Shown here piece after piece: positions 32,530-35,840 of a stretch of 64,000 bases of DNA. Made by a program: the position numbers and the translations under genes. Position 1 is the first letter of the stretch. Each line of letters starts with the position of its first letter. A model generated the notes under the pieces. It was not told the DNA's origin and made no database searches. It worked only from the letters and a program-made list of their open reading frames with translations. The stretch comes from Patescibacteria group bacterium (GTDB lineage: Bacteria > Patescibacteriota > Microgenomatia > UBA10105 > UBA927), in NCBI GenBank assembly GCA_049322955.1, contig JBMOPU010000012.1, positions 147,581 to 211,580 on the forward strand. The letters are read 5' to 3'.

Positions 32530-35500
32530 CGCAACGCTACAAGTCGATAATGAATGCCTTGGGCTGTTATGCCGAAGAAGGACGTAGTTGGCAGCGATAT
32601 TCGTCGGGGAGGAGTCAACATCCTGCGATCCGGCGGTTTCCGAATGGGGAAACCCGTCCCGTTGGGACAACCTATTATGAAGGCAACCGAAAGGTTGAAG
32701 TTAGTAGTAGGTAGGGCACCACCTGAACTGAAACATCTAAGTAGGGTGAGGAAAATAAATCGAATGAGATTCCGTCAGTAGCGGCGAGCGAAAGCGGAAC
32801 AGTCTAAACCATCCCGCAAGGGGTGGGGTTGTGGGGCTCCCGATATGGGAGAAAAACAGGTAGCAGAACGCGCCGGAATGCGCGACCAGAGAGAGTGAAA
32901 GTCTCGTATGCAAAATCTGTTTTTCCTCTAGGGAGTTCCCAAGTACCATGGAGCACGAAGGCTTTGTGGGAAGCTGGGGGAACCATCCTCCAAGACTAAA
33001 CACGTAACAGCACCGATAGTGAACGAGTACCGTGAGGGAAAGGTGAAAAGCACCCCGGAAGGGGAATGAAATAGTACCTGAAATTGTCGACTAACAAACA
33101 GCGAGAGCCCCGCAAGGGGTGATCGCGTGCCTATTGAAGAATGAGCCGGTGAGTTATTTCGACGTGCGTTAAGCTTAAGCCAGATCAAACTGGCGGAGGC
33201 GTAGGGAAACCGAGTCCGAATAGGGCGCTTGTACGTCGAATTAGACCCGAAACCGGGTGAGCTAACCATGAGCAGGGTGAGTTCCGGAGAAATCCGGAAG
33301 GAGGCCCGAACTCGTCAGAGTTACAAATCTGTGAGATGACTTGTGGTTAGGGGTAATATGCCTATCGAACCCGGAGATAGCTGGTTCTCCCTGAAATATA
33401 TTTAGGTATAGCGTCTGGTGAAGTGGTACTGGGGTAGAGCACTCACAGAAACGCCAAGCGAAAGCGAGGTCTTTCTATGAAACTCCGAATACAGATACCG
33501 TTATCCAGGCAGTCAGTCATGCGGGGCTAAGCTCGTGTGGCTAAAGGGAAACATCCCATGACTTTCGTCTAAGGCCTCTCAGTCTATGCTAAGTGGTTAA
33601 TGAGGTCGCGGTTTTAAGACACCCAGGAAGTTGGCTTAGAAGCAGCCACCTTTTAAAGATAGCGTAACAGCTCACTGGATGAAAACTGCGGCGCAGAAAA
33701 TGATCGAGGCTCAAGCATAGCGCCGAAGACAGAGATTGCCGTAAGGCAGTGGTAAGGGAGCGTTCTATTTGCAGTGAAGCATATGGCGTAAGCCAGTGTG
33801 GAGCGGATAGAAGTGAGAATGCCGGCATGAGTAGCGTTAAAAGGTGAGAATCCTTTTTGCCGAATGCGCAAGGTTTCCGAAGCAACGTTCGTCGTCTTCG
33901 GGTAAGTCGGATCTAAGGCGAGGCCGTTATTGCGGCGTAGCTCGATGTATAACGGGTTGATATTCCCGTACCGATTGTGTGTTGATTAAGACTCAAAGGG
34001 GTAACGAAGGGGAATGAGTGTGCCGGCTGAAATGCCGCTAAGTGCCGAAGTAGTGAAGATTGGGAAATCCGTTTTCATGTTTAACTTGAGGTACGATGGG
34101 GAGTCCAAAGAGCAATCTGCGGGCAACGTACATAGTTTCGCTTCCAAGAAAAGCCTCGTTGAGGAACACATAATTGTCCGTACCGCAAACCGACACTGGT
34201 GCGCTGGTGTTAGAGTACCAAGGCAAGCGAGTGAGAGTAGTTCAAGGAACTCGGCAACAAAAGCTGGGCGTAACTTTTTGGAGATGCCCTACCCGGATCG
34301 TATCCGGGTCACAGTAAATGATGCTATGCAACTGTTTAACTAAAACACAGGTCTCTGCGAAGCGGTAACGCAACGTATAGGGGCTGACACCTGCCCAGTG
34401 CCGGTAAGTTAAGAGTGGTTGGTGACCTTCGTAAGATGGAAGCTAGCTTCTCAAGCTCCGGTGAACGGCAGCAGTAACTATAACTGTTCTATGGTAGCGA
34501 AATTCCTTGTCGGGCAAGTTCCGACCCGCACGAAAGGTAGAATGACATAGCAACTGTCTTGAACTATAACTCGGCGAAATTGAAATGGCTGTGAAGATGC
34601 GGCCTACCCACACTTGGACAAAAAGACCCCGTGAAGCTTTACTGTAATTTGACACTGAGGACGCGATGTTGACTGTCGAGCATAGGAGGGAGCCTTCGGG
34701 CAACAGTGGAATACCTCTCTTCGGCATTGCGAATTCTTACTTATTCCAGCATAAAAATCCTGGAACAGAACACTGTCAGATGGGCAGTTTAACTGGGGAG
34801 GTTGCCTCCAAAAATGTAACGGAGGCGTACAAAGGTTGGCTAATCCTGAATGGAAACCAGGACGTGTCGTGCAATCGCGGCAAGCCAGCTTAACTGCGAG
34901 ACGTACAGGTCGAGCAGATACGAAAGTAGGTGATAGTGATCCTCGCATCCCTCGTGGGAGGGAGCGGGCTTAACGGATAAAAGCTACTCCGGGGATAACA
35001 GGCTGATCGCTTCCGAGCGTCCACAGCGACGAGGCGGTTTGGCACCTCGATGTCGGCTCATCCTATCCTGGGGGTGGAGAAGCTCCCAAGGGTCCGGCTG
35101 TTCGCCGGTTAAAAGGGTACGCGAGCTGGGTTCAGAACGTCGTAAGACAGTAGACCGTGATGAGATAGACTCCATCACAAAGAGCTGTCAGTTTTCCGAT
35201 GTTTTGTAAAACCCCATTGAGAATACTAAAAACTGTTATAAAAAACGAAAACAATCCGTGGCAAGGTGTGCTTTGTCGCGGGTGAAATCTGACTATTTGC
35301 TGGAAACTCTGAGTATCCGGTGGTACCCGTAAGGGTGAAAATCCATCCGGTGCAGACAATCAGCAGGGAAGATCGCGCTTTTTCTTAATTCCGCCGTAAA
35401 ACGGCAGAGTTTCGAAAAAGAGCGAAACCCTCAACGACTATATGTCAGAACGCTTTGGAAGAGGGCTACGCCCCCTTCCAACTTTCCCCAATAGGGGAAT

Positions 35501-35840
35501 GAAGATGCGTAAGAGATAGTCTGAACTCATGGGCGACCATGAGGTAACACAATTGTCGGTCTCTATCCAGTGTGGGCGTTAGATTCTTGAGGGAGGCTCT
35601 CCACAGTACGAGAGGACCTGGAGGGACGAATCCCTGGTGTGCCTGTTGTCGATCATTTGTGACGGCAACGCAGGGTAGCTATATTCGGTTGGGATAAGCG
35701 CTGAAAGCATCTCAAGCGCCAAGCCCATCCCAAGATGAAGAATCGTTATCAGACCCGTTGAAGATGACAACGTTAATAGGCTGGGAGTGTACGCACCGCA
35801 AGGTGTTTAGCTTACCAGTACTAATCGGTCGATGTTGTGG
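32530..35840 (+). rRNA. rrl: 23S ribosomal RNA (boundaries about +/-30 nt) containing a roughly 404-nt insertion
   Basis: Conserved 23S blocks include GAATGCCTTGG, TTTCCGAATGGGGAAACCC, CTGAAACATCTAAGTA, the sarcin-ricin loop AGTACGAGAGGACC, and a 3' CCAGTACTAATCGGTCGA block. Confidence 0.93.
35152..35555 (+). mobile_element. putative ORF-less group I intron inserted in 23S rRNA between GACAGT and TCGGTC, at the domain V/VI GAGACAGTTCGGTCC site
   Basis: The flanks realign to the contiguous bacterial 23S sequence. The insertion follows a U and ends with G. An internal guide GCTGTC 32 nt into the insert complements the exon end GACAGT. The longest ORF inside is 75 aa. Confidence 0.6.

Follow-up and report, generated by a model that had tools for sequence, protein, structure and literature searches.

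The 64-kb stretch of contig JBMOPU010000012.1 analysed here (the window, 64,000 nt) contains a 23S rRNA gene on the forward strand (32527-35844), and the element under study is a 404-nt insertion in this gene (35152-35555). The insertion is regarded with high confidence as a bona fide group I intron without an open reading frame (ORF), located between U2604 and U2605 of the 23S rRNA of a bacterium of the Candidate Phyla Radiation (CPR) and predicted to be spliced. The rRNA operon is arranged in the order tRNA-Ala(UGC), 23S, 5S, and protein-coding ORFs extend up to 31903. No 16S gene was found in Rfam scans of the 64-kb window, so the 16S gene appears to be unlinked from the 23S-5S pair.

With the intron left aside, the 23S gene was full length (match of 2314 bits to Rfam LSU_rRNA_bacteria over model positions 1-2925), and the large subunit (LSU) rRNA model placed one large insert between ...GACAGU and UCGGUC..., the L2604 intron being the sole insertion in this gene. 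The sequence across the junction was CGTAAGACAGT (to 35151), AGACCGTGATG...ACACAATTG (35152-35555) and TCGGTCTCTATCC (from 35556). The first bases of the intron were AGACCG and the last were CAATTG, and since the intron ends and the exon ends have no base in common, the boundaries are unambiguous. In a BLAST alignment with E. coli K-12 rrlB, which served as the numbering reference, window position 35151 corresponded to E. coli 2604 and 35556 to 2605, with A2602, U2604/U2605, C2611 and the sarcin-ricin loop (2653-2667) placed as expected. The insertion site is L2604 in the usual nomenclature, within helix 93 of domain V, in the peptidyl-transferase region and 2 nt from A2602. The sarcin-ricin loop AGTACGAGAGGACC was found at 35607-35620, about 50 nt downstream of the insertion site. 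An earlier interpretation of the same DNA (the sequence-only reading) had delimited the insert identically, between flanks that realign to a contiguous 23S gene, with a U before it (U35151) and a G at its end (G35555), and both the LSU model and the sequence agree with this. Its description of the insert as near the sarcin-ricin loop was loosely right with respect to distance, but the site really belongs to helix 93, and its assignment to the I-CreI site (around 2593) was incorrect, as the actual site is 11 nt downstream and the P7.1/P7.2 elements of the L2593 type are absent.

The identity of the insert was supported by a full-length match to the Rfam model Intron_gpI (RF00028) at 35193-35543 (model positions 1-253, 58 bits, E value 4e-12 for the 64-kb window), in agreement with the group I assignment made by the sequence-only reading, for which such a covariance-model match had been named as a check. 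The minimum free energy (MFE) z-score of the insert was -7.8, and 0 of 100 shuffled sequences folded as well. The P element AUUUGCUGGAAAC, the Q element AAUCAGCAGG, the R element UCAACGACUAUAU and the S element AAGAGAUAGUCU were readable directly in the sequence, and the helix model from P1 to P10 showed perfect complementarity in every helix (Table 1).

At the 5' splice site, 32 nt of intron precede the internal guide GCTGTC, which, as previously proposed, is a full complement of the exon end GACAGT and gives a U35151:G35184 wobble at the cleavage position. The proposed stem between GTGATG (35157-35162) and CATCAC (35173-35178), which pair perfectly, is real as well; instead of an extension of P1, as had been suggested, it is more accurately described as a hairpin inserted into the P1 loop, where it separates the P10 guide from the P1 guide. 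With double compensatory changes in 5 of its 6 pairs and 98.3% of its cells paired in the alignment of window-type introns described below, this P1-loop hairpin was among the best-supported elements. Its stem covaried freely, but the GAC at 35168-35170 of its loop (35163-35172) was invariant in all ten window-type introns, which is suggestive of a tertiary interaction or of alternative base pairing to GGUC of the 3' exon. In the core, the pair G35436:C35521 beside the bulged C35435 is the presumed guanosine-binding pair, which we take to be equivalent to G264:C311 of Tetrahymena.

Covariation was evaluated in two alignments, one of ten window-type ("type a") introns (A1) and one of 22 minimal introns from other phyla (A2), with slid registers, in which the 3' partners were shifted by 1-3 columns, as the control. 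In A1, 92.7% of the pair cells were standard pairs, compared to 35-44% in the slid registers, double changes were present in 34 of 68 pairs, and 0 of 500 shuffles reached the observed values; RNAalifold reported compensatory changes in 35 of 63 pairs. The pair closing the P7 bulge (A35434:U35522 in the window) was G-C in seven sequences of A1 and A-U in three, those of the window lineage. In A2, helices P3, P4, P7 and P9 were 99.5% paired, compared to 23-40% in the slid registers; the P7 pseudoknot covaried (GACUAU/AUAGUC, GACCAU/AUGGUC, GACUGU/ACAGUC), and so did P3. Between the window intron and that of its close relative L003, the substitutions were all in peripheral elements and included two double compensatory changes.

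Several further candidate pairings were examined. In the window type, the conserved segment CUGUUAU (35232-35238, P2 region) could pair with the UAACA of the 3' tail, to which it is complementary; several relatives and all of the minimal introns lack this segment, and no conserved complement to UAACA was seen in the minimal introns. RNAalifold also paired the GAC at positions 2-4 of the intron with the GUC of the S element; this is regarded as an artefact of a method that does not handle pseudoknots, and the bases concerned are assigned to P10 and P7. The apparent covariation of P10 with the exon base at 2611 (U or C) was treated as weak, the A-U/G-C correspondence being partly built into the best-pairing search.

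Table 1. Coordinates of the L2604 intron, its structural elements and the adjoining rRNA operon features in the window
Feature	Position	Strand	Pairing or basis
tRNA-Ala(UGC)	32212-32286		Precedes 23S; ARAGORN
5' exon end GACAGU (P1 5' strand)	35146-35151	+	Perfect 6-bp complement to 35184-35189; splice site after U35151 (E. coli U2604)
Group I intron, ORF-less	35152-35555	+	RF00028 match, MFE z-score, covariation
Putative P10 guide AGACCG	35152-35157	+	Complement of 3' exon CGGUCU (35557-35562), 6 contiguous bp; modelled as 35152-35156(57)/35558(57)-35562
P1-loop hairpin	35157-35178	+	Stem 35157-35162/35173-35178; covariation
Internal guide GCUGUC (P1 3' strand)	35184-35189	+	G35184:U35151 wobble at splice site
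P2 domain	35191-35283	+	P2 35191-35196/35247-35252 (compensatory changes in L016 and L039); P2a 35197-35201/35215-35219 (weakly supported); P2.1 35254-35266/35271-35283
P3	35288-35293/35444-35449	+	UCUGAC/GUCAGA; 100% paired, double changes in A1 and A2
P4-P6 domain	35297-35431	+	
P4 (P and Q elements)	35297-35303/35360-35366		Invariant
P5	35308-35311/35353-35356		Double changes in 3/4 pairs
P5a	35317-35323/35343-35350		Double changes in 7/7 pairs
P5b	35324-35328/35333-35337		GUAA loop
P6	35367-35368/35428-35429		Extended P6a hairpin 35373-35424
P7 5' strand (R element)	35434-35441	+	A35434, bulged C35435, GACUAU 35436-35441; complement of 35516-35522; 2 nt (35442-35443) before the P3 3' strand
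P8, branched	35450-35510	+	Closing stem about 35451-35453/35507-35509, covarying; inner hairpins 35455-35481 and 35484-35499; branch specific to window and L003; MFE and constrained folds
P7 3' strand (S element)	35516-35522	+	AUAGUC plus U35522; P7 is 35436-35441/35516-35521 plus A35434:U35522 around bulged C35435
P9 hairpin CUCAUGG-GCGA-CCAUGAG	35526-35543	+	GNRA loop; double changes in 6/7 pairs, 100% paired
3' tail GUAACACAAUUG	35544-35555	+	Family-invariant UAACA 35545-35549; omega-G 35555
3' exon start U(2605)CGGUCU	35556-35562	+	35557-35562 would pair with the first 6 intron nt as P10
5S rRNA	35973-36089		Follows 23S

From this anatomy and the established chemistry of group I introns, a splicing pathway can be proposed. 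In the precursor rRNA, the guide GCUGUC (35184-35189) would pair with the exon GACAGU as P1, presenting U35151:G35184 at the cleavage site, while the P3-P9 core would fold around the guanosine pocket of P7. A free guanosine would attack after U35151; the omega-G35555 would then replace the guanosine in the P7 pocket, with AGACCG (35152-35157) holding the 3' exon CGGUCU in P10, and exon ligation would restore helix 93 (GACAGUUCGGUC, the joined-exon sequence) next to A2602 of the peptidyl-transferase centre. Because both use the same GACAGU, P1 and helix 93 are mutually exclusive, so the intron would have to be spliced out before this part of the peptidyl-transferase region takes on its final fold.

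To place the intron among its relatives, one genome per bacterial and archaeal species was scanned for copies of the conserved 5' exon in which the next base is not T, which gave at least 120 loci. Nearly all of the matches were true insertions at exactly L2604, and both boundaries were present in the fetched DNA for at least 88 of them; the comparison with the 23S genes of relatives to which the sequence-only reading had pointed yielded same-site introns in at least 88 species genomes. The family figures given here refer to 89 introns, i.e., the 88 bounded introns among the matches listed and the window intron. In 89/89, GCTGTC was found within the first 80 nt, and 89/89 ended in GTAACA(N3-5)TG and thus in G; UAACA was invariant 6-11 nt before the omega-G. 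The matches from L035 (Shigella flexneri CP182557.1), L075 and L087 were due to single-base differences and are not insertions. The 23S of the Shigella entry L035 carries many indels relative to K-12 and lacks about 42 nt before 2597, which suggests a noisy assembly.

Two forms of the intron were distinguished, a minimal "type b" of 250-320 nt without P2, and the window-like "type a" with the P1-loop hairpin and the P2 domain. Among the 88 matches listed, Actinomycetota accounted for 45 (Solirubrobacterales, Acidimicrobiia, Gaiellales), several of them on Mb-scale contigs or complete chromosomes, followed by CPR (about 17), Omnitrophota (10), Armatimonadota (5), and a few in Planctomycetota, Dormibacterota, Myxococcota and Acidobacteriota. 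Examples are L058 (6605-7332), L078 (1899-2631), L117 (2870-3138), L033 (480-1220) and L056 (2800-3581). Further 23S insertions were often observed in the relatives at the classic hotspots 1917, 1923, 1931, 1951, 2262, 2449 and 2500, up to three per fetched 8 kb (relatives with extra introns include L040, L042, L105, L108 and L112). The P9.1 hairpin after P9, with its conserved CAGAAAUG loop, was absent in the window, L003 and L100 and kept by nearly all other family members, including L099, L016, L051, L039, L029 and all type-b introns; in the type without P9.1, the enlarged P6a and the branched P8 stand in its place. No paper describing L2604 introns outside CPR was found in the literature search, and no intron paper was found under the name "L2604".

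Many members of this family carry an endonuclease gene. About half of the relatives' introns, among the matches listed, contain a single-motif LAGLIDADG_1 gene of 160-230 amino acids (E values 1e-18 to 1e-25), which lies within the P6 loop, each of its ends overlapping the ribozyme core. At the N terminus, the conserved ADNQQ is a translation of the Q element; at the C terminus, SETIRQ is a translation of the R element plus the P3 3' strand (UCAGAGACUAUACGUCAG). Endonuclease-bearing introns of 700-900 nt include L011 (100-837), L036 (405-1254), L105 (94-843) and the L033 intron mentioned above. In the window intron, as the sequence-only reading had stated, there is no homing-endonuclease ORF: the largest ORFs overlapping the insert encode 75 (minus strand) and 56 amino acids, and both extend into the exon. 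No LAGLIDADG remnant was detected in the window intron by tblastn with 60-odd family ORFs, and no LAGLIDADG gene of the L2604 family was found elsewhere in the 64-kb window. The only tblastn match, at 35285-35387, is not a remnant of the LAGLIDADG domain; it represents the conserved P3-P5/Q core, which is read through by ORFs that extend upstream. The window intron belongs to a large mobile family at L2604 as a member that lacks the endonuclease, without which it cannot home by itself.

The following points weigh against an intron that splices as proposed. The Rfam score exceeded the gathering threshold (50 bits) by only 8 bits, a narrow margin that is due to the large peripheral insertions. 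P1 and the omega-G are invariant and consequently show no covariation. For P10, the mean best pairing across the family was 4.45 bp compared to 3.76 bp in shuffled loops, which is modest support. Splicing of this intron is predicted from its structure and from the literature on the host group, and the loss of P9.1 in the window, L003 and L100 means that efficient protein-free self-splicing is not guaranteed.

This last point leads to the strongest of the alternative explanations, in which the intron is structurally intact but no longer efficient alone and needs a protein cofactor, for example a factor of the host or a LAGLIDADG maturase whose gene lies at another place in the genome. It differs from the preferred explanation only in the autonomy of the RNA. 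LAGLIDADG proteins are established maturases of some organellar introns, the window intron is ORF-less, and it has lost the P9.1 hairpin that most of the family retains, all of which speak for a cofactor. However, the core is complete and under structural constraint, the missing peripheral stabilisation could be supplied by the enlarged P6a, the branched P8 and the P2/P2.1 domain, and a candidate maturase gene of the L2604 family is lacking in the window. In addition, the group I introns found within tRNA genes of Patescibacteria (position 35/36, subgroup IA), which are mostly ORF-less, self-splice in vitro without protein, so CPR group I introns can be autonomous ribozymes (PMC13011429); they share the host phylum with the window intron but are not homologous to it in site or guide. 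Dependence on a cofactor is considered improbable, though it is the alternative that survives best.

A second alternative is that the insert is never spliced and is either retained as an expansion segment or removed as an RNase III-type intervening sequence, leaving a fragmented 23S rRNA. Bacterial 23S intervening sequences and fragmented rRNAs do exist, and CPR 23S genes contain many insertions that are not introns (PMC11270868). In that survey, however, insertions of the intervening-sequence type were at other sites (23IS2, 23IS4), and position 2604 was classed with group I introns. The insert also has a complete covarying group I core, the splice-site wobble and the omega-G, and, judging from ribosome structure, neither 404 extra nucleotides nor a chain break would be expected to be tolerated inside helix 93, 2 nt from A2602. 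This explanation is very unlikely. An assembly chimera or a dead pseudogene copy of the rRNA without a biological role is hardly credible, since, although a metagenome assembly is the probable source of the window and rRNA regions are easily misassembled, the 23S gene is full length with a high model score, the differences from L003 preserve the structure, and the same-site intron is present in independent assemblies (identical in L019, 92.7% identical in L003) and in distant syntenic relatives.

The 23S exons of the window were 99.3% identical to those of L003 (CAYUZE010000011.1) and 94-95% identical to those of the metagenome-assembled genomes (MAGs) L099, L036 and L100 of Ca. Gottesmanbacteria; the intron of L019 (CAZCXU010000034.1) was the 100% identical one mentioned above. 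The flanking genes were syntenic with Gottesmanbacteria MAGs, and more distant syntenic relatives also share the intron site. By MAG labels, some of the close MAGs being labelled Gammaproteobacteria, the host is a Gottesmanbacteria-like CPR/Patescibacteria bacterium. The MAGs labelled "uncultured Gammaproteobacteria" were L003 and L019 and also L022, L028 and L039, and their 23S exons were 99% identical to those of the window and about 95% identical to those of Gottesmanbacteria, with syntenic flanks; these labels look wrong, and the MAGs appear to be CPR.

All relatives with at least 94% 23S identity carried the intron among the matches listed, and a metagenome search with flanks exactly as in the window gave no uninterrupted junction. 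At the level of the clade, an uninterrupted junction in the same clade-specific exon context was found in 79 metagenomic contigs. The closest intron-less contig was about 84% identical over the 23S, and therefore no presence/absence polymorphism was seen among very close relatives. This pattern would fit an optional element whose inheritance within the sub-clade is now vertical.

Among known systems, the LSU intron of Tetrahymena thermophila (L1925, subgroup IC1) is the reference ribozyme, with demonstrated self-splicing and a nuclear eukaryotic host. It shares the P/Q/R/S core, the U:G pair at the 5' splice site, the proposed P10, the omega-G and the P7 G-C pair beside the bulge with the window intron, whereas the insertion site and the peripheral domains differ and the splicing of the window intron is predicted. 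The nearest precedent is the catalogue that Tsurumaki et al. (2024, J Bacteriol) compiled of insertions in the rRNA genes of CPR bacteria, in which 23S position 2604 is named by position as "23IS13" (PMC11270868). Position 2604 was one of those at which group I introns and LAGLIDADG_1 genes accumulate; for several such positions, 2604 included, bacterial group I introns had not been described before, and the insertions in CPR rRNA genes were described as removed from the transcripts, citing Brown et al. (2015) (PMC11270868). By its host group, 23S position, Rfam group I class and the association with single-domain LAGLIDADG_1 genes in relatives, the window intron is a member of this already catalogued CPR 2604 class. 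It differs in that the window copy is ORF-less, and PMC11270868 is a catalogue that contains no structure; what the present analysis adds is the P1-loop hairpin, the P2/P2.1 domain, the absence of P9.1 and the covariation of the individual helices.

The introns at L2593, the I-CreI site, are found in the Chlamydomonas chloroplast (Cr.LSU), Synechococcus, Thermosynechococcus and DPANN archaea; they belong to subgroup IA3 (PMC6125680), and in the description of Haugen et al. (2007, PMC1995217) their P5 is short and P7.1/P7.2 are present. Both sites are in LSU domain V in the region of helix 93, 11 nt apart, and single-motif LAGLIDADG genes are frequent at both. However, insertion at L2593 is after U2593 (ACGU/CGUGA) and here after U2604, and the window intron has an elaborate P5-P5a-P5b and lacks P7.1/P7.2. 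The bacterial L1917/L1931 introns (Synechococcus C9, Thermotoga, Coxiella; IC1-like or IB4) also have a complex P5 and include minimal forms without P2, and in their endonuclease-bearing members the LAGLIDADG ORF runs from around P6 through P7 and P3 (PMC1995217). The ORFs of the L2604 relatives have the same arrangement, and introns at L1917/L1931 and at L2604 are often present together in a single 23S gene. Site and guide differ, and the window intron has the added P2/P2.1 domain and P1-loop hairpin. The architecture of the window intron is closer to that of the L1917/L1931 introns than to that of the L2593 introns.

The surroundings of the rRNA operon were also annotated. Seven of the ten ORFs flanking it (in the region of 27700-31903, 36178-37394 and 39097-39840) had no Pfam match at E values up to 1e-5, while the identified downstream ORFs encode a four-domain S1 protein (37773-38924), RadA (39877-41187) and a PIN-TRAM protein (41315-42142). 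Two more tRNA-Ala genes (anticodons GGC and CGC) are in tandem, 84 nt apart, at 57516-57745. The ORF-poor stretch at 42.1-43.9 kb gave no Rfam match at E values up to 0.1, and a permissive Rfam scan of the whole 64-kb window revealed nothing new.

For annotation, the 23S gene of this organism should be read as two exons joined at GACAGU/UCGGUC; pipelines that ignore the intron would give wrong measurements of the rRNA, and primers or probes that span helix 93 would fail. CPR bacteria have tiny genomes and usually a single rRNA operon, and this is another case in which they tolerate introns of the self-splicing type where the ribosome is most conserved. In the family data, L2604 emerges as a hotspot of bacterial introns that is widespread and extends well outside CPR; the same data provide a secondary-structure model of L2604 introns that is backed by covariation, and they reveal endonuclease genes whose ends are translated elements of the ribozyme core. 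A broader and tentative proposal, considered possible rather than probable, is that the window intron is a distinct structural variant of a larger, largely undescribed bacterial L2604 lineage that is commoner in Actinomycetota, Omnitrophota and Armatimonadota than in CPR. Such a variant may have arisen with a GAC-loop hairpin inserted between the P10 and P1 guides, P2/P2.1 added and the near-universal P9.1 lost; if so, the peripheral scaffold that holds the core together has been swapped. In a bolder version, splicing, which would compete with the formation of helix 93 next to A2602, may be an assembly checkpoint of the single-copy CPR ribosome.

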